This document shows, piece by piece, positions 736-38,957 of a stretch of DNA of 38,957 nt. The notes beneath the pieces were generated by a model, which searched no databases, had not been told where the DNA came from, and saw nothing but the letters and a program-made list of their open reading frames with translations. The stretch's first letter is position 1; every line of letters starts with the position of its first letter. Source of the stretch: a virus. The stretch lies in IMG/VR virus record IMGVR_UViG_3300045988_085954; one strand, 5' to 3'. The position numbers were made by a program, and so were the translations under genes.

Positions 736-1052
736 CTTACCTCTTTATCTGTTTATGGTCTATTACCTTTATTATTCATTCTGTTTATTTATATAAATAA
801 TAGAGGTAGCAATCTTTATATAGACTGTCTCTCACCATGACTAACCTAGTACATCATTTAGATAACTTTGTCACGTCACCTTTAGGTTAGCCTTTAGGAG
901 CTTATACAAAATATCTTACCTACTACACCACTCATAGACACATACTCCGTCTGTGGACATGAGACACCTAGTAGGTACTATATATAACCTTTTCTCTCTC
1001 TTCTTCACCTTATGTCCCACCTAGGACTTCGTATTGGGTTTATTGACTTTTA

Positions 1053-1075
1053 AGTAACTTGTGTCTCACCTATAT
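1053..1075 (-). promoter_or_regulatory. Phage-RNAP promoter copy (right-end, phiOR-like)
   Basis: Plus strand reads aacttgtgtctcacctata, which matches the core cttgtgtctcacc found upstream of the capsid, SSB, dUTPase and RNAP genes. It lies in the AT-rich non-coding region 736-1122. Confidence 0.45.
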
Positions 1076-3696: not shown

Positions 3697-4185
3697 TTAC
3701 TGATTAGCGTACCAATTCGCCTTGCCAATGATGGTCGGAATCTCATGGTAGAGGTTGTCACCGGGACAATCCGTAGACATGAGGTCACGATGCCCAACGA
3801 TGTGCTCACCATCCATCGGGAGGCCATAGTCCGTGCAAAGGTTTGCCAGAAGCATCGCCGTGGATTCAATCTGTGCGTCCGTAGGCTCCGCTTCGCTGAA
3901 GTCACCACTCAGATGAATCCCCAACGTGTGCCAGTTCTCACCATAAGCGTGTGCGCCGATTTTCCAATGAGGACGCCCCTTCTCAATCGTGCCATCTTTG
4001 CGAATGACGTAATGATAACCAATGCCAGCCCATCCATTGTTCTTATGCCATCGATCGATTTCCTCTGCACTTGCATCAATATCAGCACCACCCGTATGAT
4101 GCAAGACAATCATGTCCGTCACCTCGCGATCACTCAAGGTACCATTGAATTGTAGATGGGTGTCCTTGATATTAACTCTTTCCAC
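3697..4185 (-). CDS. Endolysin, N-acetylmuramoyl-L-alanine amidase (Amidase_2 / T7-lysozyme fold)
   Basis: Zn ligands and catalytic residues of the Amidase_2/PGRP family are all present: VLHHTGG, GYHYVIRKDG, GAHAYGENWHTLGIHLSG, HIVGHRDLMSTDCPG. Confidence 0.85.
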   Translation of the reverse strand: MERVNIKDTHLQFNGTLSDREVTDMIVLHHTGGADIDASAEEIDRWHKNNGWAGIGYHYVIRKDGTIEKGRPHWKIGAHAYGENWHTLGIHLSGDFSEAEPTDAQIESTAMLLANLCTDYGLPMDGEHIVGHRDLMSTDCPGDNLYHEIPTIIGKANWYANQ

Positions 4186-4570: not shown

Positions 4571-4631
4571 CCCTGCGATAGCTCCGACACAAAGCTCTGT
4601 CTGTGTCCAGAAATGATTGAATGTGATAGTA

Positions 4632-14139: not shown

Positions 14140-14150
14140 ACTGTCTCCTT

Positions 14151-14170
14151 TCTATCTTGTGTCTTGCTTA
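14151..14170 (-). promoter_or_regulatory. Variant phage-RNAP promoter upstream of the gp15-like gene
   Basis: Plus strand tctatcttgtgtcttgctta; sense strand TAAGCAAGACACAAGATAGA runs directly into the ribosome-binding site, as at the DNAP-module promoter. Confidence 0.45.
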
Positions 14171-14911
14171 GAAGAAGTTGATTGTCTGATTCTTTTCCGT
14201 ATATGGATTGATATACTCAAACTTAAAGGACGTATTCTTCCAATCAATATTGGTATGGAAGAGACTGCTGTAATCTGGAGCATCATCATATATGGTCTTG
14301 AATGATGAGGATGATGTATCCCAATAGAGCTTATTGGAAACTCCAGAGGAACTATGGGAACTGCCCGTGCTCATGGCGGAGTCCTTGACACCTCCCTGAG
14401 CACGGATACCCTGTATAGCATCTTCCGTCTGCTCTGCCCTATAGTATGCCGTGCCTAGCTTCAGCAGGGTAGACCACAATGAGGGTTTCTCTACTTGTGC
14501 TATGCTGTTGAGTCTCCCCTTTGCCTCCATCGCCTGTGACTCCTTATTGAGGTCAATCTCATTGGACTTGCGCCGATAGTTATCTCTGGTACTAGACAAG
14601 GCTCGATTGGTATCAGCCTGTGCGGAACGTTTCAGGAGGTTGGCTGTCCTCCCACCACCTGCAAGACCTTCGTTGACTGCCGCCCCCACCTGTGAGGTCA
14701 AACGGCCTCCCTGAAGACGAATCTTCTGGAGGTCAGCCACAGTTGCATCAAAGGCATCGGCGCGCTCCTGCTCTAGGTTCTGGAAACCATAGTTCATGGA
14801 GGTTATGATATTTTTTGCCGTCTGGACATTGGCTCTTGCCTGTGCCTCTAGCGACTTATTCTGTGCATAGACATCAACGAGAGCGGAGCCTACGGCAACC
14901 ACAGCACCCAT
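14168..14911 (-). CDS. Internal virion protein (gp14-like)
   Basis: 247 aa, Ala/Gln/Ser-rich, sitting between tail tubular B and gp15 as T7 gp14 does. Confidence 0.45.
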   Translation of the reverse strand: MGAVVAVGSALVDVYAQNKSLEAQARANVQTAKNIITSMNYGFQNLEQERADAFDATVADLQKIRLQGGRLTSQVGAAVNEGLAGGGRTANLLKRSAQADTNRALSSTRDNYRRKSNEIDLNKESQAMEAKGRLNSIAQVEKPSLWSTLLKLGTAYYRAEQTEDAIQGIRAQGGVKDSAMSTGSSHSSSGVSNKLYWDTSSSSFKTIYDDAPDYSSLFHTNIDWKNTSFKFEYINPYTEKNQTINFF

Positions 14912-17836: not shown

Positions 17837-17872
17837 TAATAAAAAGGGAGAGAAGACACAAAGTCCTCTCCC
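17837..17872 (-). terminator. Hairpin terminator after the capsid gene (Tphi analogue)
   Basis: Stem gggagag (17845-17851) pairs with ctctccc (17865-17871) around a 13-nt loop. On the minus strand it is followed by TTTTTATT, exactly between the capsid gene and the gp11 gene. Confidence 0.55.
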
Positions 17873-17904
17873 CCTTCCTATTCAAGTTGGTTGTCTCAGT
17901 TTAA

Positions 17905-18906: not shown

Positions 18907-18948
18907 TATACTTTTCTCCTTTGGTCTTCAGACCATCATTTTGTTTCT

Positions 18949-18970
18949 TCTCTGTCTTGTGTCTCACCTT
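18949..18970 (-). promoter_or_regulatory. Phage-RNAP promoter upstream of the capsid gene (phi10 analogue)
   Basis: Plus strand ctctgtcttgtgtctcacctta; sense strand TAAGGTGAGACACAAGACAGAG lies 43 nt upstream of the capsid ATG and overlaps the scaffold stop. Confidence 0.6.
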
Positions 18971-22293: not shown

Positions 22294-23027
22294 AGTTTCA
22301 CCTGTCCTTCTGCATCAATGTCATCAGCCGTCAGAATCTTTGCGACTCTGGCCTGAGTGATTGCAACATTTTCGGACAGACCTGCTTTTTCGTAGGCTTC
22401 TTTGACAGCATTCCATGAGCAGTCTTTGTCAAGGATGCGCTGTGCGGTAACTTTGCCTACCTTAGGACACCCGGAGTACCCATCGGTTGCATCCCCCATG
22501 AGTGTCTGCATGTAGAAGTGCCGTAAGGAATCCTCCTCACTACTATGCCCATACTCTTTACGGAGGAAGTCATAGTGATAACCCGAAATGCACAGGAGGT
22601 CTTTGTCACCACTAATGATGATGCATTTATCACGATACATTGGTTTGGTAGCAAAGATACCCATACAGTCATCGGCTTCAAGTGTGTCTTTGGTAATGGT
22701 GTCATATTCAGATTTCACCCAAGACACAAGGGCTTTGTACCCTACGGGCTTTCTCTTACCCGCACGGTTTGCCTTGTATGTCGGGAGGATGGAACGTCTG
22801 AAATTGACCGTATCAGAGAAGCAGTATTTGACCTCAAAGGCTCCATGGTATTCGTGGGCATCAAGGGCATCCCTGAGAATCATCTCCATGAGAGATTCAA
22901 AGCGTTCTTTGGCTTCATTGAGATTGACATGGAGTGTCCAGATGTCGTTTCCCCAATCAATTTCCTTCTCCACGGAGGAGCAAGCACGGAAACATACCAT
23001 GTCTCCATCAATCAGAAGGTAAAGCAT
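22269..23027 (-). CDS. 5'-3' exonuclease (gp6-like, FEN family)
   Basis: LPTYKANRAGKRKPVGY matches T7 gp6 DPNYKANRKAVKKPVGY, and GDATDGYSG matches GDITDGYSG. Confidence 0.85.
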   Translation of the reverse strand: MLYLLIDGDMVCFRACSSVEKEIDWGNDIWTLHVNLNEAKERFESLMEMILRDALDAHEYHGAFEVKYCFSDTVNFRRSILPTYKANRAGKRKPVGYKALVSWVKSEYDTITKDTLEADDCMGIFATKPMYRDKCIIISGDKDLLCISGYHYDFLRKEYGHSSEEDSLRHFYMQTLMGDATDGYSGCPKVGKVTAQRILDKDCSWNAVKEAYEKAGLSENVAITQARVAKILTADDIDAEGQVKLWKPTEAH

Positions 23028-24402: not shown

Positions 24403-25067
24403 TTATTTATTATCTACTGTTCCTGTCCATTGGTCTGCCATAGCTTCAGCAATACCAGGAAAGGTCTTACTACGCCATTTAGCTGTTTCAGGGTCATTCC
24501 AAGCATACTGTTTCCCATTGAAAATAGCTTTCCATATATTTGTTGTCCGTTTCTCCGGAGGACATATATCCGTAGGTTGGAGGTTTGGCAATCCTTTCAA
24601 CCACAAACAGGTTTTTTTTTTACACTCTGTTGAACCAAATTGGTAAGGGTTTATGATCTGATTAGGTTTTCTATATTTTGTACTCATAATGCCTACAGGA
24701 TTCTCAATAGCAATTTTTTTTTTTTTCACAATCAGCATTTACAAACTTCATAAAGAAATCAATAGCTTCTACCTGTAAACTACGAGGTTTCTTTCCTTCC
24801 GTAAACCATCGCTGACCTGCACAGCATAAATGCGTACATGGAGGAAAAGCAATAATCATATCCCACTTAGTGTTAATTTCATGCTCTGTACCATCTGTAG
24901 TCTTAAAGGTGCAATATCCATTCAGTAATGGTAAAACATCCTCCATTATATGCCATTCCTGATGGCCCCCACTACAATCTTGAATATCGCAAGAGTAAGC
25001 CTCATGTCCTCTCTCTCAGAGCAATAGTGACTCTCTGGGATTCTTCACAAGCTACTAGAACACGCAT
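24403..25067 (-). pseudogene. SAM-MTase-like (C5-cytosine-MTase-like) gene split into three reading frames at two simple-sequence repeats
   Basis: Three consecutive minus-strand fragments: MRVLVACEESQRVTIALRERT* (25067-25002), ERGHEAYSCDIQ...IAFPPCTHLCCAG...ADCEKKK (through 24704), and KKIAIENPVG...FPGIAEAMADQW (24738-24403). The frame breaks coincide with G(AG)4 at 25009-25017 and A13 at 24714-24726. Removing one A from the A13 tract fuses the second and third frames exactly, and adding one GA unit fuses the first and second. Confidence 0.5.
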
Positions 25068-25106
25068 TAAAACCCCCTTCTAAAAATAGACAAAAAAAAG
25101 ACTGCC

Positions 25107-27008
25107 TCAGTGACAATCGCACCAATTCTTACCAATGATTCCTTCAGTGTCCAACTGCATACGGAATCCAAAGAACTCCTGCGCGTCACGCATAGCCGCC
25201 TGTGCCTCAGAGACAACAATCTCAGCAATCTCTTTGGTACGACATGCTACCTGAATTTCATCGTGAATCCATGCCATGTAGGCAAAGTCACCATCCCATC
25301 CATGTTTCAGACCACGCTGAATCAGCCGTTCTTCTGTCCTGACAATCCACTTCTTGCACACGAGGGCACCTGCGGATTGCAGGAGCAGATTCAGTGCCGA
25401 ATGTGGACTGCGTACATGCAAAAGTCTCCCATCGAGACCTTTAAGATAATGCCGTTTCCAACGAACGACCTTACCACGGTCAGTTTCAACAATAGCATTC
25501 TGAACGGCATCCCGGAGATTCTTGATAGCAGGTGTCGCTTTCAGGAATTTGCGCTTAATGCGCTTTCCGTCAGTTGCGTCACCACCAATGATTTTGCCAA
25601 TCTTTGCATCTCCTGCACCATATAAGAAGGCGTATATGAAGGTCTTCGCCTGATTTCTTTCAGGCAATCCTGCCGCCTTCTGATTCATGGTGTGGATGTC
25701 TCCATTCAGGATGGTGTGTGCATACTTTCCCTTATCGTATGGTGACATGTAGTGAGCGAGACACCTCAGTTCAAGGCCACAAGCATCAATACCTGCTTGC
25801 CACCAATCCCCTGCACTCCACAAGGCGCGACACTCAGCACCATAAGGTGAGCCTACGTGTGGCACCTGAGCCACGTTAGGAGAACTATGGGTAGCTCTGC
25901 CACTCACAGCACCATTGGGAACCACGCGACCATGAATGCATCCATCATCGGGGTCATAGGCAGAGAGCCACGCATTACTGCCATTGGCAATCTGACCAAG
26001 ACGCTTCTTCAACATCAAGGACTCCTGTATCAGCCCTGTGATTTCTCGTAGTTCCTCAGGGCACGCTGTATCTTCCTTGATGTATTGCATGATGATGTCA
26101 TCCATCTTCAGGCGATAATCAGCCAAGTTTGGATTCTCATCCATGTCTGGGATATCATAGAGGTCTGGGTTGTCTGGGTTGTAGTTGTACATGGTACGAA
26201 AGACATATTCAATCTGCTGTCTGCTGTTAGGATTGAATGTCTTGTACTTCTGAATTGGAACTCCTGCTTTATAGCCAAGACGCTTGTTGTCTCGCTTTGG
26301 CACGAATACCTTATCTGGAATCTCAGGTATCTTTTGGAGGAGCGTGGTCGTAATGATAGCCTGACGTTCCTTCAGTTCCTCAGAGAGCTTCAAGGCTCCC
26401 TCATAGTCGAATTTGAAACCATTGCGTTCCTGCTTCGCCATGAGCCATGCTACCTGATGTTCCAGTTCAATCGCTCTTGAAGAATAAGGCTTTGCGGTCA
26501 GCTTCTCATAGAGTGCTTTCGTGACCCACACATCCTGCTCGTTATAATCAAGCATCTCCGGATTGTAGACCGCCCATGCGTCTTCCTGTTCACCATAGGT
26601 TCCCTTGAGGACACCCAAGCGATACCCCCACGCCATGAGTTTGTGGGATTTATACAGGGTTTTGGGGAGCTTTCCAGACTTCATGAGGCCGAGGTCTATC
26701 GTGTCAATGTTTGAATAAATGAGACGAGCGAGGACAAGCGTGTCCACAACCTGCTCCTGTTGATCATACGAGATGCGAAAAAGATGTGGATAGAGCTTCT
26801 CAAGGGCGGGGATGTCATAGTCAATCACATTATGACCACACAGTTTGCCGCCCTGCGTGATTGTATCTTGAAGCATCTTGACTCCCTCCTCTACATTGGT
26901 GGGGTCAAAGCGATACATCTTTTTCGTCTCTGTATCATAGACACACATGCAATGAAGGACGCTTACTTCCTTCAGAAGACCATTTGTCTCAATATCAAAC
27001 ATCAACAT
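25107..27008 (-). CDS. DNA polymerase, family A (T7 gp5-like)
   Basis: 3'-5' exonuclease motif MLMFDIETNG, polymerase motif A DACGLELR, motif B RNQAKTFIYAFLYG, motif C HDEIQV. GGAGG ribosome-binding site. Confidence 0.95.
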   Translation of the reverse strand: MLMFDIETNGLLKEVSVLHCMCVYDTETKKMYRFDPTNVEEGVKMLQDTITQGGKLCGHNVIDYDIPALEKLYPHLFRISYDQQEQVVDTLVLARLIYSNIDTIDLGLMKSGKLPKTLYKSHKLMAWGYRLGVLKGTYGEQEDAWAVYNPEMLDYNEQDVWVTKALYEKLTAKPYSSRAIELEHQVAWLMAKQERNGFKFDYEGALKLSEELKERQAIITTTLLQKIPEIPDKVFVPKRDNKRLGYKAGVPIQKYKTFNPNSRQQIEYVFRTMYNYNPDNPDLYDIPDMDENPNLADYRLKMDDIIMQYIKEDTACPEELREITGLIQESLMLKKRLGQIANGSNAWLSAYDPDDGCIHGRVVPNGAVSGRATHSSPNVAQVPHVGSPYGAECRALWSAGDWWQAGIDACGLELRCLAHYMSPYDKGKYAHTILNGDIHTMNQKAAGLPERNQAKTFIYAFLYGAGDAKIGKIIGGDATDGKRIKRKFLKATPAIKNLRDAVQNAIVETDRGKVVRWKRHYLKGLDGRLLHVRSPHSALNLLLQSAGALVCKKWIVRTEERLIQRGLKHGWDGDFAYMAWIHDEIQVACRTKEIAEIVVSEAQAAMRDAQEFFGFRMQLDTEGIIGKNWCDCH

Positions 27009-27264: not shown

Positions 27265-27275
27265 ATTTATCATCC

Positions 27276-27297
27276 TCCCTGTCTTGTGTCTCACTTA
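27276..27297 (-). promoter_or_regulatory. Phage-RNAP promoter upstream of the small coiled-coil gene and the DNAP gene
   Basis: Plus strand tccctgtcttgtgtctcacttaa; the sense strand runs directly into the GGAGG ribosome-binding site. Confidence 0.55.
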
Positions 27298-29623: not shown

Positions 29624-31260
29624 TTTGAGTCCTCCTTTTCTGTCTTGATTTCTAAGGGGTCTACGTCCTCTATGGTGTTGGTCGATTTGTTGAACCTCAG
29701 GTACCCTGCGAGACCCGTGTTGCCTGTGAAGCGACATTTGAGTACCCTAAGTTTCAAGGTGTTCTTCATGTCTTCATCGTCGGCCTGTTGGTTTCTCTCA
29801 AGTGCCAAAATGGTGTCGGGTATCTGCTTGAGTGTACCTGAGCCACGGAGGTCATCAAGGGAAATCGTGCCCCCCTGTTCAAATGGAACTGTCTTTGTGT
29901 CCCCCTTGCGGAGGTGAGACACCACGACAATCCCTGCTCCTGTCTCTTCTACGAGTGCACGGAGCTTTGTCATGAGCATGTCAATGGCTTTGCGCTCATT
30001 GACGCTTGATTCATCGAGACCACTGACCGCTATGGATACGTGATCAAAGATGACAAAATCACAGCCTTCACCCGTGATAAGAAAGCGTATCTTCTCAAGG
30101 AGATTGTTTCCTTCAATCGACCCAAAGTGGTCATAAAGACAAAAGCCCCCATCACCAAATACGGCATCATAGACAGGCTTTAGTTCCTCTTTGTCTATGG
30201 TGTTCCATAAGAGGTGAAGGGGTTTTGCTACAGCAATGGACAGGAGGTCTCGAAGTGTCTTGTTCTTGTTCTCTTCGAGCATGACCATGCCCACTTTCAT
30301 ATTATCTTGCATCTCCAGTTTGAAAGCGATTTCTCGTGCCATCGTGGATTTGCCAATACCTGTACCTGCTGTGAGCAGAAGCATTTCGCCTTTGCGGATT
30401 CCCATTGTCATCTTTGTCAGGTCTTCTGCCCACGGGAAAGAATAAGAAGGAATCTCTGCCTCCTGTGAGAAGAACTCTTCCTTCAGGTCTTTGGCATTGA
30501 TGATACCATCTGGACGATATTCCCTAGCTTGCCAGATTGCACGGATGACCTCATCGGCCTTGCCATTCAAAAGGCACTCATTTGGGTCTTTCATTGGCAG
30601 GGTAGCAATCTTCAGCTTGTGGAGTGGCAGGATACCAGAGACAGACTTCACGGCCTCCTGACCCGCTTCATCCATGTCGAACATGACGATGACTTCATCA
30701 AACCCTGAGAGCCAATCGGCTTGAGCTTTGAAGACATCTTTTGCACTACGACAACCAAAAGGGATGGATACCACAGGGTATTTGTTGTCTTGCAACTGCG
30801 ATACCGTGAGACAATCAATCTCACCTTCTGTGATAATCAGTTTCTTGCCTGTCGAAAACAAATGCTGACCAAAGAAGATGTTGTCTTTCTTGCCACGAAC
30901 AATGAAGTTCTTCTCGCGATCTCGCGTCTTCTGAAAGATGACACGACCATCCTTGCGATAATCAGCGACTTGAATGGGTTGCCCGAAGTCGTTCTTTGAC
31001 AAGTGATAACCATACTTACGACAGGTGTCAGAGGTTATGCCTCTAGCCTTTAGTGGTCGAATCTCCATTTCAGATTCTGGAATGACAGGTAAATGCTTAG
31101 AGGACACAGACCTCCCTCCTTCTTCTTCTTTTTCATCTAGCCATGTAAACTTCTCGCAGACAAAACAAAATTTGTGGTCAGTATAGATGGTCGCTCCATC
31201 ACTACTGCCACAAAACTCACACGGTACATGGGCTTTGACAATCTCTGACACATAAATCAC
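29611..31260 (-). CDS. DNA primase-helicase (gp4-like)
   Basis: N-terminal Zn-finger CEFCGSS...CFVCEKF, TOPRIM region, and DnaB-type helicase with Walker A GTGIGKST. Confidence 0.9.
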   Translation of the reverse strand: MIYVSEIVKAHVPCEFCGSSDGATIYTDHKFCFVCEKFTWLDEKEEEGGRSVSSKHLPVIPESEMEIRPLKARGITSDTCRKYGYHLSKNDFGQPIQVADYRKDGRVIFQKTRDREKNFIVRGKKDNIFFGQHLFSTGKKLIITEGEIDCLTVSQLQDNKYPVVSIPFGCRSAKDVFKAQADWLSGFDEVIVMFDMDEAGQEAVKSVSGILPLHKLKIATLPMKDPNECLLNGKADEVIRAIWQAREYRPDGIINAKDLKEEFFSQEAEIPSYSFPWAEDLTKMTMGIRKGEMLLLTAGTGIGKSTMAREIAFKLEMQDNMKVGMVMLEENKNKTLRDLLSIAVAKPLHLLWNTIDKEELKPVYDAVFGDGGFCLYDHFGSIEGNNLLEKIRFLITGEGCDFVIFDHVSIAVSGLDESSVNERKAIDMLMTKLRALVEETGAGIVVVSHLRKGDTKTVPFEQGGTISLDDLRGSGTLKQIPDTILALERNQQADDEDMKNTLKLRVLKCRFTGNTGLAGYLRFNKSTNTIEDVDPLEIKTEKEDSNCQF

Positions 31261-31595
31261 CCTCTATGTACAAGAGGAAGGTTCAGTTCTTTCGAGAGCT
31301 CGAATAATACTTCATCTTGTATGTGGTTTACTGTATCTTTCCTATGCCCCATGACCAACACGCAGATATGGTCATCCCATCCATAGAGTGATGGGTCACA
31401 TACCTGATTCTGGGGCATTCCTGCTTCAAGGGTTCCGTCTGCGTGCAAGAGGTAGTTATATCCAATGCTGAACCACCCCTTCCGCATGACGTAACGTGCA
31501 TATTCTTTCATTGGCATATCATCTTCCGTGTAGTAGAGGACGATACCTTTGGTGCTTTCACGCTCCTTGAATTTCAAATTTGGTAACTGTTTCAT
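31257..31595 (-). CDS. T7-lysozyme (gp3.5) homologue lacking Zn ligands (probable RNAP-binding regulator, amidase-dead)
   Basis: FKERESTKGIVLYYT aligns with T7 FKQRESTDAIFVHCS, and GWFSIGYNYLLHADGTLEAG with GWLDVGYHFIIKRDGTVEAG. The T7 His17 Zn ligand is replaced by Tyr, and the C-terminal segment carrying the His/Cys ligands is absent (112 aa versus 151 aa). It occupies the gp3.5 position between endonuclease I and the primase-helicase. Confidence 0.65.
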   Translation of the reverse strand: MKQLPNLKFKERESTKGIVLYYTEDDMPMKEYARYVMRKGWFSIGYNYLLHADGTLEAGMPQNQVCDPSLYGWDDHICVLVMGHRKDTVNHIQDEVLFELSKELNLPLVHRG

Positions 31596-32646: not shown

Positions 32647-32697
32647 TGTGTATACATTCCTTTCAAATTTGAAATTGACGAGAAGTCTGACTGGTTC

Positions 32698-32722
32698 TTC
32701 TCTGTCTTGTGTCCCACCTGTG
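32698..32722 (-). promoter_or_regulatory. Phage-RNAP promoter upstream of the SSB gene
   Basis: Plus strand cttctctgtcttgtgtcccacctg, with a one-base variant (cccac) in the core. Confidence 0.5.
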
Positions 32723-33652: not shown

Positions 33653-33697
33653 TCACAACTACCTCCTTTCATTTTCCAAGACACAAAAAGTTATGAA

Positions 33698-33722
33698 CTT
33701 CCTCTCTGTCTTGTGTCTCACT
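33698..33722 (-). promoter_or_regulatory. Phage-RNAP promoter (origin-proximal B, reads into dut)
   Basis: Plus strand cttcctctctgtcttgtgtctcactttagc. Confidence 0.55.
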
Positions 33723-33897
33723 TTAGCTAACTAAAGGATTTTGTAGTATCCTTTAGTTAATTAAAGCAACTTATAGTTTACCTTTAGGTTATTTACCTTA
33801 TGGTTATTATTTATAAAGCAATAGAGGTAGTGACCTAAGGATAAACCTATTGGTAGAAGAGGTTCCTTTTGTTACCTTATGGTATCTATTACTCTCC
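33723..33897. other. AT-rich non-coding region with iteron-like repeats between two tandem phage promoters (candidate primary replication origin)
   Basis: There is no ATG on the sense strand. Sense-strand repeats are CCATAAGGTAA (x2), CCTAAAGGTAA, CCTTAGGTCA and ACTAAAGGATA, together with the small palindromes ctttagctaactaaag and ctttagttaattaaag. The layout RNAP gene - promoter - AT-rich - promoter mirrors the T7 primary origin. Confidence 0.5.
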
Positions 33898-33922
33898 TCC
33901 TGTCTTGTGTCTCACCTACATC
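33893..33922 (-). promoter_or_regulatory. Phage-RNAP promoter (origin-proximal A)
   Basis: Plus strand ctcctcctgtcttgtgtctcacctacatc, immediately after the RNAP-gene terminator. Confidence 0.55.
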
Positions 33923-33944
33923 TTGTGGTTATTTTTATAGCAAG

Positions 33945-33985
33945 ACACAAGAAAAGAGGCTGTACATGACAACCTCTTTTTCTAA
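33945..33985 (-). terminator. Intrinsic terminator directly after the RNAP gene (early-transcript terminator), potentially bidirectional
   Basis: Stem aaagagg (33953-33959) pairs with cctcttt (33973-33979) around a 13-nt loop. On the minus strand it is followed by TTTTCTTGTG, and on the plus strand by TTTTTCT. Confidence 0.5.
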
Positions 33986-33991
33986 AACTAT

Positions 33992-36634
33992 TTATGCAAA
34001 ACAGAAATCTGATTTTGCCACTAAATCAAGGTCGAGAGTGCCAAACTTTGGTAACTCTGGTACTTCATCGAGATCATCAATAAGATAGCTCACGGACTCT
34101 AGGAATCCTGCGAGGTGATTCTGGTCTTTATAAAGACCAATAAATTCATCTCTGATAGTCTTGTAGAGACTCCCGGCATGGGCGGCATCTGTTCCGAAAC
34201 TGTCATGTATCATCATAAAGTTTCGATTGCCCTTCAGGTGCTCCGAGACCACTACCCTCTGTAGATGGCTTGCATCCATGCTATGAATGAAGTTGGGCGC
34301 TATGCCGTTCTGCTGTCTCCTATTGTCAATCTCATCGGTCTCCTCTTGATTGTAGAAGCGTACCTGAGAGCCATCAAAGCGCAACTTTATGCACTCTTGT
34401 CGCATCTTCATGTAGTTCTGCTGAACTAAGAAGCCGTTCGGCGTTGTCCATGAAACTACCTCTCCAGATTGGCAGATAAGTCTTGCAACCTTCTGCAACC
34501 ATTCCATACCTTCAACAGCCTTGACAACAGTTGTCGCTACAGCTTCCCATATCAATTTAGCCATGTAGACAGCGGCCTGATTAGTATTCAAGAATGGACT
34601 GTTGTCTGGATGGTCAAGGACATACGGGTGGATGATGTCGGTCAGCAAATTTTCCTTGAATCCATACTGCTTTGACCCATACGCCAAGGTCATTACTGAC
34701 CGCTTGCAGACCTTGCGGGTAATGCCATCCTTGCCAAACTTGATACGATTGAAGGCTACCCAATTCTGTGCGAGTGTCTTCGTTCCATACTTGTAGGAAT
34801 CGGAACCTTCTTTTTTCTCGTCCTCTGTCCCCGTCTGGACATCCTTGAGGAGCTGAACATTTACCTTATCAGCTACGATTGAATAGATGTCTTGCACCTT
34901 GTCCGAGGGTACGAGGTTTACGGCAAAACCACCTACCTCATCCCGGAGGAGGGCTGAGAAGTGTTGCAGGCCGGAGCATGTACCATCAAACGCCAAGGGC
35001 AGATTCGACATAAATCCCTTGACAGAACCACTGTTTTCTGCCTTGTAGTCATTTAGGCGTTTCCATTCGTGACAGAAGGACAAAAATTCCATCGGGTAAT
35101 CACCTTTAGACACCTCATACCACCATGTGTAACCTAGAGGGTCTTCTGCACTTGCGATAATATCGACTGTATGCTCCTTGACCCATGCTACACGGTCGGC
35201 AAATGCTATCTTGTCGTTACCTGCAAGGTTTGCGCCGTGGATAGCCATCCACTTGTCATCCCCTTCAGCCAATGGCGAAGGATTTGCGAACAGGAGCAGG
35301 GATTTCTGGATGTCATCCCCTTGCGGACTCAGCGCGGTCGGGATAGGATAGCAACGACCACGATAATCTACGTTCCACGGAAAGTAAATTTTGTCATACT
35401 CGCTGAACTTTTCGGCCACCTTGAGTGCCAAAAGGCATCTAAGGGCTTTGCTCTTGCGTGCTTCTTCCTGCTTGTAGAGGCCTACGGCTTTCTTTTTGTG
35501 CTCCTTCACTTGCTCTTCAGGCGCATCCTCTGGGAGGCGTGGGAGTGTCTGATACGGTTCCGTCCTAGGAACGCCACCGAGTTCACCACCAGACGCATAG
35601 ATTTCCTTGAGTGTCTGCAAGATAAATGGATTGATGATAAAAGGCGTATCCTGCATGGCATTGAGAGCGTCATAAACTACTCCAAGGTCAATCGCTGACA
35701 GTTTCTTATTGTAGGCTTTCAGAAACTTTGTTTTTGTCTGTACCTTCAGCCGGATGAGCTGAGTGCCTAGCACGGACTCGCCATAATAGCCTCCATCATG
35801 TGGGTCAGTCCAATGGCGCGGCGGAATAATAGTTGGCATGTAGCGGACTGCATTCGCAATCATGTGGGACTCGTTGCTTTCCCATGTAGCCTTAAACCAA
35901 TCCGTAGCATCCACAGCTTTGATATGCTTTGTCCCCCGGCCTGTGCTTACCTCCCTTTCACGAATGACATAGTAATCGGAGCCTGCAATGAGCATTTCAA
36001 GCACCTTTGCGCCTAGGACTTCTACCTGCTGATTTGACCAAGCGAGACCTACATATCCTTCCTTGTTCATGCGGTTTGTTGCATAGGCCACACGATAAGA
36101 CGAACGTACACGCTGTTCTATGCCTTTGTCCATTGACTTTTTCAGCCATTTGACATCTGTATCCTTGTTGACCTCTTCCCATTGATAGAAGCGTTCAATA
36201 TCCGCTTCTCGCTTGATTTGCATCCCAATCAGCATAGCCACATTGGATAGGGTGGTCTGTGTTGTATCATGCGACATCAACACGGCATCCATCGCCTTGC
36301 TGTGTCCGGCGAGGACTAGGAGGTCTTCCAAAGCCTCCTCTTTTTCCCGATAGATGACTAAAAGTTCTTTCATTGGCAGGAGCCAAGCGCCTTGCGTGGT
36401 CTTCTTAGGGTGCTTTGCGTCCTCTAGGAGAGCGTGGATATTCTTGCGGCATGTCTCCCATGAGTGCTTCATGAGCTTGCCTGCTAGGTGCCCTTCGCCG
36501 CCTTCTCCCTCGCGCTTTGCCTTGTCAAGAGCTTCCTTCAGGTGCTCCTCTGCTTCCTGCTTTGCCTCCGCTTCTAGGAGGAGCTCCTGTGTGTAGAGCC
36601 CTCCGTATAGCTTTTCATATTCTTCAAATTTCAT
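33992..36634 (-). CDS. Single-subunit DNA-directed RNA polymerase (T7 gp1-like)
   Basis: 880 aa. Motif A DGTCSGLQHFSA, motif C IHDSFGT and a C-terminal ...DFCFA match T7 RNAP. A TGGAGG ribosome-binding site is present. Confidence 0.95.
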   Translation of the reverse strand: MKFEEYEKLYGGLYTQELLLEAEAKQEAEEHLKEALDKAKREGEGGEGHLAGKLMKHSWETCRKNIHALLEDAKHPKKTTQGAWLLPMKELLVIYREKEEALEDLLVLAGHSKAMDAVLMSHDTTQTTLSNVAMLIGMQIKREADIERFYQWEEVNKDTDVKWLKKSMDKGIEQRVRSSYRVAYATNRMNKEGYVGLAWSNQQVEVLGAKVLEMLIAGSDYYVIREREVSTGRGTKHIKAVDATDWFKATWESNESHMIANAVRYMPTIIPPRHWTDPHDGGYYGESVLGTQLIRLKVQTKTKFLKAYNKKLSAIDLGVVYDALNAMQDTPFIINPFILQTLKEIYASGGELGGVPRTEPYQTLPRLPEDAPEEQVKEHKKKAVGLYKQEEARKSKALRCLLALKVAEKFSEYDKIYFPWNVDYRGRCYPIPTALSPQGDDIQKSLLLFANPSPLAEGDDKWMAIHGANLAGNDKIAFADRVAWVKEHTVDIIASAEDPLGYTWWYEVSKGDYPMEFLSFCHEWKRLNDYKAENSGSVKGFMSNLPLAFDGTCSGLQHFSALLRDEVGGFAVNLVPSDKVQDIYSIVADKVNVQLLKDVQTGTEDEKKEGSDSYKYGTKTLAQNWVAFNRIKFGKDGITRKVCKRSVMTLAYGSKQYGFKENLLTDIIHPYVLDHPDNSPFLNTNQAAVYMAKLIWEAVATTVVKAVEGMEWLQKVARLICQSGEVVSWTTPNGFLVQQNYMKMRQECIKLRFDGSQVRFYNQEETDEIDNRRQQNGIAPNFIHSMDASHLQRVVVSEHLKGNRNFMMIHDSFGTDAAHAGSLYKTIRDEFIGLYKDQNHLAGFLESVSYLIDDLDEVPELPKFGTLDLDLVAKSDFCFA

Positions 36635-36654
36635 ATACTTGTGCCTCCATCTGG

Positions 36655-36687
36655 TTTTTCTCTATCTTGTGTCTCACCTAAATTTGT
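36655..36687 (-). promoter_or_regulatory. Phage-RNAP promoter immediately upstream of the RNAP gene (autoregulatory), with an inverted core copy facing the plus-strand gene
   Basis: Plus strand ttttctctatcttgtgtctcacctaaatttg. Its inverted copy gtagacacaagg lies at 36695-36706, so cttgtgtct and agacacaag form a 9-bp inverted repeat with a 22-nt spacer. Confidence 0.55.
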
Positions 36688-36751
36688 ATTACATGTAGAC
36701 ACAAGGCTAACTATACAATTTGTAAAACATGTGGTAGCATGTTATAGGGTG

Positions 36752-37372
36752 ATGAAAATGGATTTTGATGAAAAAGATGAAGCTATCCGCTTTCGCCTTT
36801 CAACTAGCATGAAGAGGAAACTTCAACTCATTGCAATGCGTCGCGGTCTCAATATGTCCCAATTCATCCGCAATTACATTGAGACAATCATTAATGAGGA
36901 TGAGAATCAAGACATGCTTGCCGCGCGTGATGCTAGGTATCTAGTGAATCCAAAAGATGAGGATGAAAATCCTTATGGTTCTATTGTTTCCACGAGGGTG
37001 CCAACAGAATTGAAAACCTTGTATAATGCCTGCTGTTCCTCTAATAGCTTGAAAGCTAGCGAGCTTATACGGAACTTCATGCGCGACTATACGGAATTTA
37101 GATTGCAGATGTACCCCGGTCACCTAAGGTCTCTATCAGGGTATCTAAGCTATTTCCTGCTGTTCCTAAGGATGGCAGAGTACCACAAAGGGAAGGCTTT
37201 CAAGTCTTGCCGTATGGTACACGCAAAGAACAAGATCATACCAGATACACCTATCATAGAAAAAGTTACTGCCTGTACTTATCGCGTAAATGACATATTA
37301 GCGGACTGCTATTACATCATTGAATTTGAAGATATAACTAATGTGAATGTCTCTTTTTCTCCCTTTGACTGA
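36752..37372 (+). CDS. Tandem ribbon-helix-helix (RHH) DNA-binding protein, the only plus-strand gene
   Basis: Two RHH units: IRFRLSTSMKRKLQLIAMRRGLNMSQFIRNYIETII and IVSTRVPTELKTLYNACCSSNSLKASELIRNFMRDY, each with a beta-strand with alternating polar residues followed by two helices, then a C-terminal domain of about 90 aa. The start is ATG 36752 or 36758, after an AGGGTGA site. The gene is convergent with the early genes. Confidence 0.6.
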   Translation: MKMDFDEKDEAIRFRLSTSMKRKLQLIAMRRGLNMSQFIRNYIETIINEDENQDMLAARDARYLVNPKDEDENPYGSIVSTRVPTELKTLYNACCSSNSLKASELIRNFMRDYTEFRLQMYPGHLRSLSGYLSYFLLFLRMAEYHKGKAFKSCRMVHAKNKIIPDTPIIEKVTACTYRVNDILADCYYIIEFEDITNVNVSFSPFD

Positions 37373-37382
37373 TACCTACACA

Positions 37383-37415
37383 CGAGACACAAGCAACTTT
37401 TTACCTTGTGTCTCG
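37383..37415. other. Perfect 11-bp-stem hairpin between convergent genes, built from the phage-promoter core
   Basis: cgagacacaag (37383-37393), loop caactttttac, cttgtgtctcg (37405-37415). It sits between the RHH-gene stop (37372) and the SprT-like gene stop (37432). Confidence 0.6.
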
Positions 37416-37431
37416 CCTTGCAGGAGCTGTT

Positions 37432-38429: not shown

Positions 38430-38522
38430 GATATTTCCTCCTTTTGTGTGACATGTGGTAATTTAGGAGTCCTATAGCCTCCGTGGGATGTCCCAGAGAT
38501 TACCCTGAGACATCCTCGCAAA

Positions 38523-38892: not shown

Positions 38893-38957
38893 CTGTGACT
38901 AGCCCGGCTAGCCTCCCTTTGGTTACCTAAGGACGATGGCAACAACCAGACTTGCTA
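38893..38957. repeat. 65-bp exact direct terminal repeat (copy 2)
   Basis: Identical to 1-65. Confidence 0.8.

Follow-up and report, generated by a model that had tools for sequence, protein, structure and literature searches.

The T7-like category of phage promoters has been set out by Zhu et al. (NAR 2025; PMC11880802). Direct-coupling analysis of T7-like polymerases linked residue 748 to base -11 of the promoter, including a pairing of K with G, and the key residues of the published code are 748, 756, and 758; moreover, R746 pairs with C-7 in 91% of the published cases (PMC11880802). In LUZ100, a T7-like Pseudomonas phage with temperate features, promoter phi1 was mapped experimentally directly upstream of the RNA polymerase (RNAP) gene, and positive feedback was proposed (PMC10134795). 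In Vibrio phage phiA318, promoter phi-A8 was predicted upstream of the kinase and RNAP genes and was read as autoregulation (PMC4099482). Here, we analyzed IMG/VR virus record IMGVR_UViG_3300045988_085954, a stretch of 38,957 nucleotides (referred to below as the window) in which an earlier note had described eight near-identical sequences as a family of phage-specific promoters. As judged from sequence comparisons, the repeated motif is very probably the promoter recognized by the phage's own T7-family single-subunit RNAP, and the family would be classed by its bases as a diverged T7-class promoter. The promoter category is ordinary, in that promoters of its own are to be expected in any T7-like phage; the sequence itself is undescribed, and a text search of the literature with the motif strings returned unrelated primer matches only. 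The result is an undescribed polymerase-promoter pair from an uncultured clade of human-gut phages that is abundant in metagenomes.

The 21-mer TAGGTGAGACACAAGACAGAG had six matches at no more than two mismatches, all on the minus (gene) strand (36660-36680, 33898-33918, 33704-33724, 32700-32720, 27277-27297, and 18950-18970), compared to none in 100 dinucleotide-preserving shuffles. The core GACACAAGAYAG occurred seven times, again always on the minus strand, versus 0.51 occurrences expected, and the motif was the top direct-repeat family across the whole window. When a weight matrix was built from the six strong copies and both strands were scanned, these copies scored 34 to 44 bits, and three further minus-strand variants were recovered at 14146-14175 (22.8 bits), 1048-1077 (18.7 bits), and 999-1028 (17.6 bits). 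The next minus-strand site scored 6.5 bits and the best plus-strand site 5.6 bits, so that the two-strand scan suggested in the earlier note yielded nine minus-strand sites of at least 17.6 bits. All eight coordinates given in that note were borne out, as was the sense orientation of the family on the minus strand, with six copies strong and the rest weaker or partial; a second partial copy, at 1005-1023, was absent from its list. The copy assigned to the "right end" (about 1054-1072) stood only in part, since it matches through TAGGTGAGACACAAG and diverges thereafter, and the label itself had to be dropped because the contig ends are an assembly overlap and no physical genome end. Likewise, "origin region," as used in the note for the two copies after the RNAP gene, is a label by analogy. 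A look-alike reported upstream of the holin gene (4580-4611) could not be upheld either, as it is without the -18 to -8 half and falls outside the top 20 minus-strand matches, the lowest of which scored 3.1 bits.

All copies are intergenic or overlap the preceding gene by its stop codon only, and the gene-proximal copies lie 13 to 56 nt upstream of start codons. Two of them run directly into ribosome-binding sites, as had been noticed before. The earlier gene labels agreed with PHROGs, with the addition that the copy at 27277 is located on the stop codon of an NrdD-like gene, which is followed by a small open reading frame (ORF) and then by the DNA polymerase gene. The position of the weaker variant at 14147-14170 is kept in the related contigs L064 (TAAGCGAGACAC) and L065 (GAAGTGAGACAC). 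The two partial copies retain exactly -18 to -4 and diverge from -3 on, and contig L012 has a homologous pair at 4133 and 4192; by analogy, an intact binding half joined to a diverged initiation half may be taken to fit the division of T7 promoters into binding and initiation regions. Separately, the best plus-strand look-alike (ATAGCAAGACACAAGAAA/AGAGG, 33932-33961) points in the antisense direction into the RNAP gene at its 3' end, has 14 nt in common with the weak 14147-14170 variant, and is the tail of the hairpin that follows the RNAP gene.

The polymerase itself is intact. Its residues 117 to 880 align to T7 RNAP structures, the equivalents of catalytic residues D537, K631, Y639, H811, and D812 are present, and the C terminus is FCFA. 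Its nearest named or GenBank phage polymerases are only 36 to 40% identical, and none of its 403 metagenomic relatives at E values below 1e-50 is named. Approximately 40 related contigs from IMG/VR, metagenomes, and one bacterial genome, with RNAPs ranging from 98% to 40% identity, were compared, and their motifs were found by unbiased k-mer counting. Each lineage possessed its own repeated motif at the same genomic places. The window, L010, and L011 (RNAP identity, 97 to 98%) have TAGGTGAGACACAAGACAG; L016 (90%) has TAGGTGGCACACAAGATAG; L012 (86%) has a motif ending in GATAG; and L035 and L036 (62%) have TAGGTGGTACACAAGTTAG. Motifs beginning with TAATTGGCACACAA were found in L013 and L033 (67 to 69%), with TAATTGAGCCACAAG in L014 (66%), and with TAATTGACGCACGA in L015 (50%), and several lineages at 40% identity have TAATTGAGACAC followed by CTAATAG, GCAATAG, or ACAATAG.

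These changes in the motif were accompanied by changes in two loops of the polymerase. Base -11 varied with the equivalent of N748 (G with K or R, C with Q, and T with S), a residue to which MAFFT and HMMER gave the same assignment, and base -12 varied with the residue two before the R756 equivalent (A with Q and G with R). The pairing of K with G agrees with the published rule (PMC11880802), and the second residue lies outside the three key residues of the published code. Upstream, the segment equivalent to the AT-rich recognition loop varied with bases -18 to -13, such that KKTTQG occurred with TAGGTG, KKTTKG with TAAGTG, and RGVK, GVKP, or KGVVP with TAATTG. A neighbor-joining tree built with both loops masked placed GC-type polymerases among AG-type polymerases, which requires at least three independent AG-to-GC switches. 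The rule was also followed by all six further relatives (L058, L059, L060, L061, L062, and L069), whose loops were read before their promoters were searched for. Since co-variation with both loops is expected only if the polymerase reads the motif, these results argue that it does. Together with the strand, position, and copy number of the motif and the intact RNAP, they support the proposal of the earlier note that these are promoters of the phage's own single-subunit RNAP with an undescribed specificity. The co-variation series points to specific residue-base contacts and is a possible source of orthogonal transcription parts.

The same comparison makes it extremely improbable that the motif is a promoter of the host RNAP used with a host or phage-encoded sigma factor. 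The motif changes with the phage RNAP, even between phages whose capsid genes are 90 to 92% identical, and it occurs in early, middle, and late regions alike. It forms one continuous conserved block of about 19 nt with no bipartite -35/-10 structure, and no match to a sigma-factor family was obtained among the approximately 37 ORFs scanned. Consensus scans of the window for sigma-70 promoters and terminators gave counts near those of shuffled sequence, and the terminator scan missed the capsid terminator described below; the host, probably an anaerobic member of the Negativicutes, may have promoters that the sigma-70 scan used does not model, which speaks for a host promoter.

For the predicted promoter of the phage polymerase, the best register is T(-18)AGGTGAGACACAAGA(C/T)A(-1), followed by G(+1)AGAAG. 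The predicted +1 was placed at the nineteenth base of the motif because of the sequences of the relatives and the likeness of the L040 promoter to that of K11. The relatives read TAATTGAGACACCTAATA/GGGGAA, TAATTGAGACACACAATA/GAGGGA, and TAGGTGAGACACAATATA/GAGA (the slash marks the start), and the second of these, from L040, is identical to the K11 promoter at 17 of 23 positions. In the register thus fixed, the motif spans -18 to +3, and all six strong copies have A followed by G(A/G)(G/A) at +1. An alignment to SP6 was also considered, in which the ATTTAGGTGA of the phi1 copy, identical to the start of the SP6 promoter, suggested a +1 at the G of CAA/GACAG. This register scores equally for the window alone but clearly loses in L012, L059, L020, L060, and L040, and it was rejected as an offset coincidence.

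Several observations count against the identification of the motif as a promoter of the phage RNAP, or against details of it. From the window alone the register is ambiguous, since a +1 four bases upstream (CAA, then GACAG) matches the references equally, and the tie is broken only by the relatives. Bases -7 to -3 are CAAGA and not the CACTA of more than half of T7-like promoters, and the residue aligned with R746 is Cys although C-7 is retained. L067 and L068 have no capsid promoter despite capsid genes 90 to 92% identical to that of the window, showing that single copies can be lost. In the early region, three promoter-like cores each form one arm of an inverted repeat and could have a second role or no promoter role, and a distant fragment (L057) is an exception to the co-variation, having K at the N748 equivalent with A at -11. 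CACTA and R746, both missing here, are frequent rather than strictly defining features, and their absence marks a divergent branch.

In the mechanism that we propose, bases -18 to -13 (TAGGTG) would be read by the AT-rich-loop equivalent, the -12/-11 pair (AG) by Q757 and K750 of the specificity loop, and C-9 by R759, which is conserved and corresponds to T7 R756. The region from -4 to +6 would be that of melting and initiation, with transcripts predicted to start with G after A, as in T7, T3, K11, and SP6. The six strong copies would drive the genes for RNAP, dUTPase (two copies in tandem just after the RNAP gene), single-stranded DNA-binding protein (SSB), DNA polymerase, and capsid; of the copies predicted to be weaker, one would act before an internal virion protein gene, and the two partial ones lie downstream of the terminase gene. 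A Tphi-like hairpin would stop part of the transcription that starts at the capsid promoter, and phi1 would boost RNAP synthesis once some RNAP has been made. The coordinates are given in Table 1.

Table 1. Predicted promoters, polymerase elements, and hairpins of the window (slash, predicted start; promoter sequences run from -18 to +6)
Feature	Position	Strand	Sequence	Remarks
phi1	36657..36680	-	TAGGTGAGACACAAGATA/GAGAAA	predicted +1 lies 28 nt before the RNAP ATG
phi1.1A-like promoter	33895..33918	-	TAGGTGAGACACAAGACA/GGAGGA	after the hairpin that follows the RNAP gene
phi1.1B-like promoter	33701..33724	-	AAAGTGAGACACAAGACA/GAGAGG	54 nt upstream of dUTPase gene
phi2.5-like promoter	32697..32720	-	CAGGTGGGACACAAGACA/GAGAAG	56 nt upstream of gp2.5-type SSB gene
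Promoter ahead of DNA polymerase module	27274..27297	-	TAAGTGAGACACAAGACA/GGGAGG	on NrdD-like stop codon; runs into ribosome-binding site of small ORF ahead of DNA polymerase gene
phi10-like promoter	18947..18970	-	AAGGTGAGACACAAGACA/GAGAAG	on scaffold stop codon; 46 nt upstream of major capsid gene
Weaker variant	14147..14170	-	TAAGCAAGACACAAGATA/GAAAGG	runs into ribosome-binding site of 772-aa internal virion protein gene
Partial copy	1049..1072	-	TAGGTGAGACACAAGTTA/CTTAAA	downstream of large terminase gene; binding half intact, initiation half diverged
Second partial copy	1000..1023	-	TAGGTGGGACATAAGGTG/AAGAAG	49 nt downstream of first partial copy
T7-family single-subunit RNAP gene	33992..36634	-		880 aa; phrog_414, E 4e-227; T7 RNAP structures, E 5e-136
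Specificity loop, residues 741-763	34346..34414	-	YMKMRQECIKLRFDGSQVRFYNQ	K750 corresponds to T7 N748 and R759 to T7 R756; Q757 is second co-varying residue
AT-rich recognition loop equivalent, residues 75-84	36383..36412	-	HPKKTTQGAW	co-varies with TAGGTG versus TAATTG at -18 to -13
Strong hairpin	37375..37425	-	AAGGCGAGACACAAG	5' arm (sequence given) promoter-like; -27.5 kcal/mol; between SprT-like gene and 3' end of plus-strand repressor-like ORF
Terminator-like hairpin	33952..33980	-		directly after RNAP stop codon
Tphi-like intrinsic terminator	17837..17880	-	UUUUUAUU	20-bp stem, 5-nt loop, then the sequence given; -30.8 kcal/mol, z -4.8

A phi1-type promoter upstream of the RNAP gene was present in L010 to L014, L017, L033 to L036, L059 to L062, L069, and the 40%-identity clade, with predicted leaders of about 24 to 36 nt in the closer clade; no RNAP-proximal copy was found in L015 or L058. 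Because this arrangement recurs in nearly all relatives, self-amplification of the RNAP, which the earlier note had deduced from the promoter directly upstream of the RNAP gene, is plausible, and we regard it as a reasonable inference. The arrangement itself is already known, having been mapped in LUZ100 and predicted in phiA318. The only gene on the opposite strand of the window is an ORF at 36641-37372 (plus strand; likely start at 36752 or 36758), the product of which, about 205 aa, contains two ribbon-helix-helix segments of the CopG/Arc-like repressor type. This ORF and the RNAP gene are divergent, and the 117 bp between them include phi1; a counterpart of the ORF was found in L061 and not in L012. 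The hairpin at 37375-37425, the 5' arm of which is a promoter look-alike (37401-37419) that is probably not a promoter, separates this gene from the upstream early genes.

Three promoter or promoter-like cores around the RNAP gene pair with an inverted copy, CTTGTGTC(T), in stable hairpins at 37375-37425, 36655-36715, and 33895-33985 on the minus strand (z scores of -7.9, -5.0, and -4.2, respectively). One arm of the homologous hairpin of L011 has an A-to-G change, which the stem accommodates as a G-U pair; the inverted copy of L012 is longer and amounts to a nearly complete antisense promoter, CATGTGAGACACAAGACAGAA. The inverted core pairs could be RNase III-type sites (like R1 and R1.1 of T7 and T3), operators, or antisense promoters. 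The inverted partner was rejected as a clade-wide hairpin or operator, as it was found only in the window, L010, L011, and L012 and was absent in 12 other lineages. A further candidate for a second motif or pause signal, TTGTGTCTT, which occurs four times on the minus strand versus about 0.26 expected, was rejected as an independent signal: the phi1.1A core has its inverted partner in the occurrence at 33942, that at 33678 lies downstream of phi1.1B in a weak fold (z -1.2), that at 22721 is within the exonuclease gene, and that inside the capsid terminator is not kept in L065 to L068.

These structures are the main reason to ask whether the motif is not a promoter at all and serves as an operator for a phage regulator, for example the divergent ribbon-helix-helix protein, or as a signal for processing or stability of the RNA at cistron 5' ends. 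The CopG/Arc-like ORF does adjoin phi1, the three cores form inverted repeats or hairpins with CTTGTGTC, and T3 RNase III sites overlap or abut phage promoters. We nevertheless consider this very unlikely, since two RNAP loops vary together with the motif, and do so at the bases that the T7 RNAP-promoter structure would predict, which is not the behavior of a regulator site or an RNase site. Moreover, the inverted partner is limited to the closest relatives of the window, the late copies at 27277 and 18950 have none among exact matches to CTTGTGTC or TTGTGTCTT, and L012 keeps its promoters without a repressor-like gene at that place. It is conceivable, albeit doubtful, that the clade carries a natural two-position code, in which the N748 equivalent reads -11 and the second residue reads -12, and, separately, a switch at the RNAP region, in which phi1, the divergent ribbon-helix-helix gene, and the inverted cores may form feedback on polymerase synthesis. 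Should the code exist, the pairs that have switched in nature (K,Q with AG; Q,R with GC; and S,R with GT) could serve directly as orthogonal sets of polymerase and promoter.

The hairpin that the earlier note had described as Tphi-like after the capsid gene is real and conserved in position. A hairpin and T-run stand at the same place in five phages; the stems differ in L065 to L068, and 4 of 14 pairs of the stem are changed on both sides with pairing kept. L064 and L065 have the capsid promoter itself, L066 has a degraded form with one base deleted, and L067 and L068 have none. A small hairpin between the capsid promoter and the capsid ribosome-binding site (GGTCTGAAGACC, 18922-18935, minus strand) is kept in the five phages compared and is changed on both sides in L067 (AGTC...GACT). 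Mosaic genomes were also evident: the L013 and L014 contigs have capsid genes 92% and 90% identical to that of the window, with RNAPs only 69% and 66% identical, and have no phage promoter upstream of the capsid gene. Evidently, promoters have to be adapted to whichever polymerase is resident once modules have been exchanged, and single copies can be dispensed with.

Mosaicism also bears on a different reading, namely that the copies are recombination boundaries or remnants repeated for nontranscriptional reasons, with a minority being functional promoters. Along with mosaic genomes such as the L013 contig and the existence of partial copies, this reading could draw on L064 (RNAP 98% identical), which has an extra consensus promoter (TAAGTGAGACACAAGACA/GAGAAG, within 2440-2560) directly after the DNA polymerase gene; at 25040-25120 of the window, this segment is replaced by unrelated sequence starting with a hairpin and a T8 run (25100-25118). 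However, 15 of 19 positions are invariant in the six strong copies, which also stand at a fixed distance from ribosome-binding sites and at positions that are homologous in relatives. What remains of the partial copies is exactly the binding half, -18 to -4, as would be expected of weak promoters and not of random decay. There is little chance, then, that most copies are anything other than promoters of the phage RNAP.

As a whole, the window represents the complete genome of a T7-like phage of the human gut, in which positions 1 to 65 are exactly repeated at 38893-38957 as the assembly overlap of a circular contig. The coding fraction is 93% (7% noncoding), and all genes but the plus-strand ORF are encoded on the minus strand, ordered as in T7: early genes, the RNAP gene, and genes for dUTPase, gp2.5-type SSB, and endonuclease, followed by primase/helicase, NrdD-like anaerobic ribonucleotide reductase, DNA polymerase, thymidylate synthase, and exonuclease, with holin, amidase, and terminase in the last part. 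A search for near-identical DNA revealed no close GenBank phage, the only match being 141 bp at 77% identity. Contigs of relatives with a stated origin are from the human gut, and relative L069 is a prophage in the genome of Pectinatus frisingensis MB174 (NZ_WIQU01000040.1; Negativicutes), with an RNAP 63% identical to that of the window. On the basis of the Pectinatus relative and the anaerobic reductase, the host is probably of an anaerobic Negativicutes type. Tyrosine integrases are encoded in the metagenomic relatives L059 (143-1276) and L060 (165-1292), on the opposite strand upstream of the early genes; given these and the location of L069 inside a bacterial genome, part of this T7-like clade appears to be temperate. 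No integrase was found in the window, in which an excisionase-type HTH_17 ORF is kept at 481-735.

Other features of these genomes may be recorded here. Where T7 has gene 3.5, the window has a 112-aa ORF (31257-31595, minus strand) with only a weak N-terminal amidase match (phrog_822, E 6e-8), and a full amidase gene is present in the lysis cassette (3697-4185); the small ORF could encode a lysozyme-derived RNAP inhibitor. In L060 (14076-16671), the DNA polymerase gene is interrupted by an Endonuclease_7-type ORF, probably through insertion of a homing endonuclease. Repeats of ATAAGCACC(A/T)ATAAGCAC (minus-strand reading) occur at 272-299 and 467-484, in the stretch that separates the terminase gene from the early genes, with similar repeats, TATAAGCACCTATAAGCACC, at 5058-5290 of L013. 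The element TAGGACTCCTA(A/G)ATTA..ACATGTCA occurs once in the window, upstream of a 119-aa early ORF (38449-38474, minus strand), and the same TAGGACTCCTA-type element occurs three times in L011 (2684, 3145, and 3580), each time upstream of early ORFs; a role as an operator, or as an early promoter used by the host polymerase, is possible.

The family resembles the promoters of T7, T3, K11, and SP6 in being a continuous motif of about 21 to 23 bp that is present in many gene-strand copies at gene boundaries, and it resembles those of the T7 group in having a binding and an initiation half, A at -1, G at +1, and a purine-rich start. Although the motif had been called unrelated to the T7 promoter, the two have G-11, A-10, C-9, C-7, A-6, A-3, A-1, and G+1 in common, and the window promoter is identical to those of T7 and K11 at 11 to 12 of 23 positions; the positions of its copies are analogous to those of phi1.1A/B, phi2.5, phi10, and phiOR of T7. 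In contrast to the T7 group, conservation begins at -18 and not at -17, and the R746 equivalent is Cys, Val, or Thr in the clade with C-7 still present. The clade also departs from the published code (PMC11880802) in that a Q or R two before the R756 equivalent tracks base -12. The capsid terminator resembles T7 Tphi, the class I terminator after gene 10, in being a stable G+C-rich stem-loop with a U-run directly after the major capsid gene that is conserved in relatives, whereas its sequence is unrelated. The phiA318 promoters differ in being of the SP6/K1E type (consensus, AATAAAGTTGCCCTATA) and are known from prediction only, and phi-A8 is not immediately beside the RNAP start codon. LUZ100 is closer, with an RNAP-adjacent phage promoter, a neighboring repressor-type gene, a terminator or hairpin upstream, and an integrase, as in relatives L059 and L060 of the window. 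The start site was mapped in LUZ100 and is predicted here, and the LUZ100 regulator is MarR-like and co-oriented with the integrase gene, whereas that of the window is an opposite-strand tandem ribbon-helix-helix ORF in a genome with no integrase. With an RNAP-proximal promoter that is nearly clade-wide and that stands beside a repressor-like gene in the window, polymerase control in temperate or ex-temperate T7-like phages can be tested in a second system besides LUZ100.

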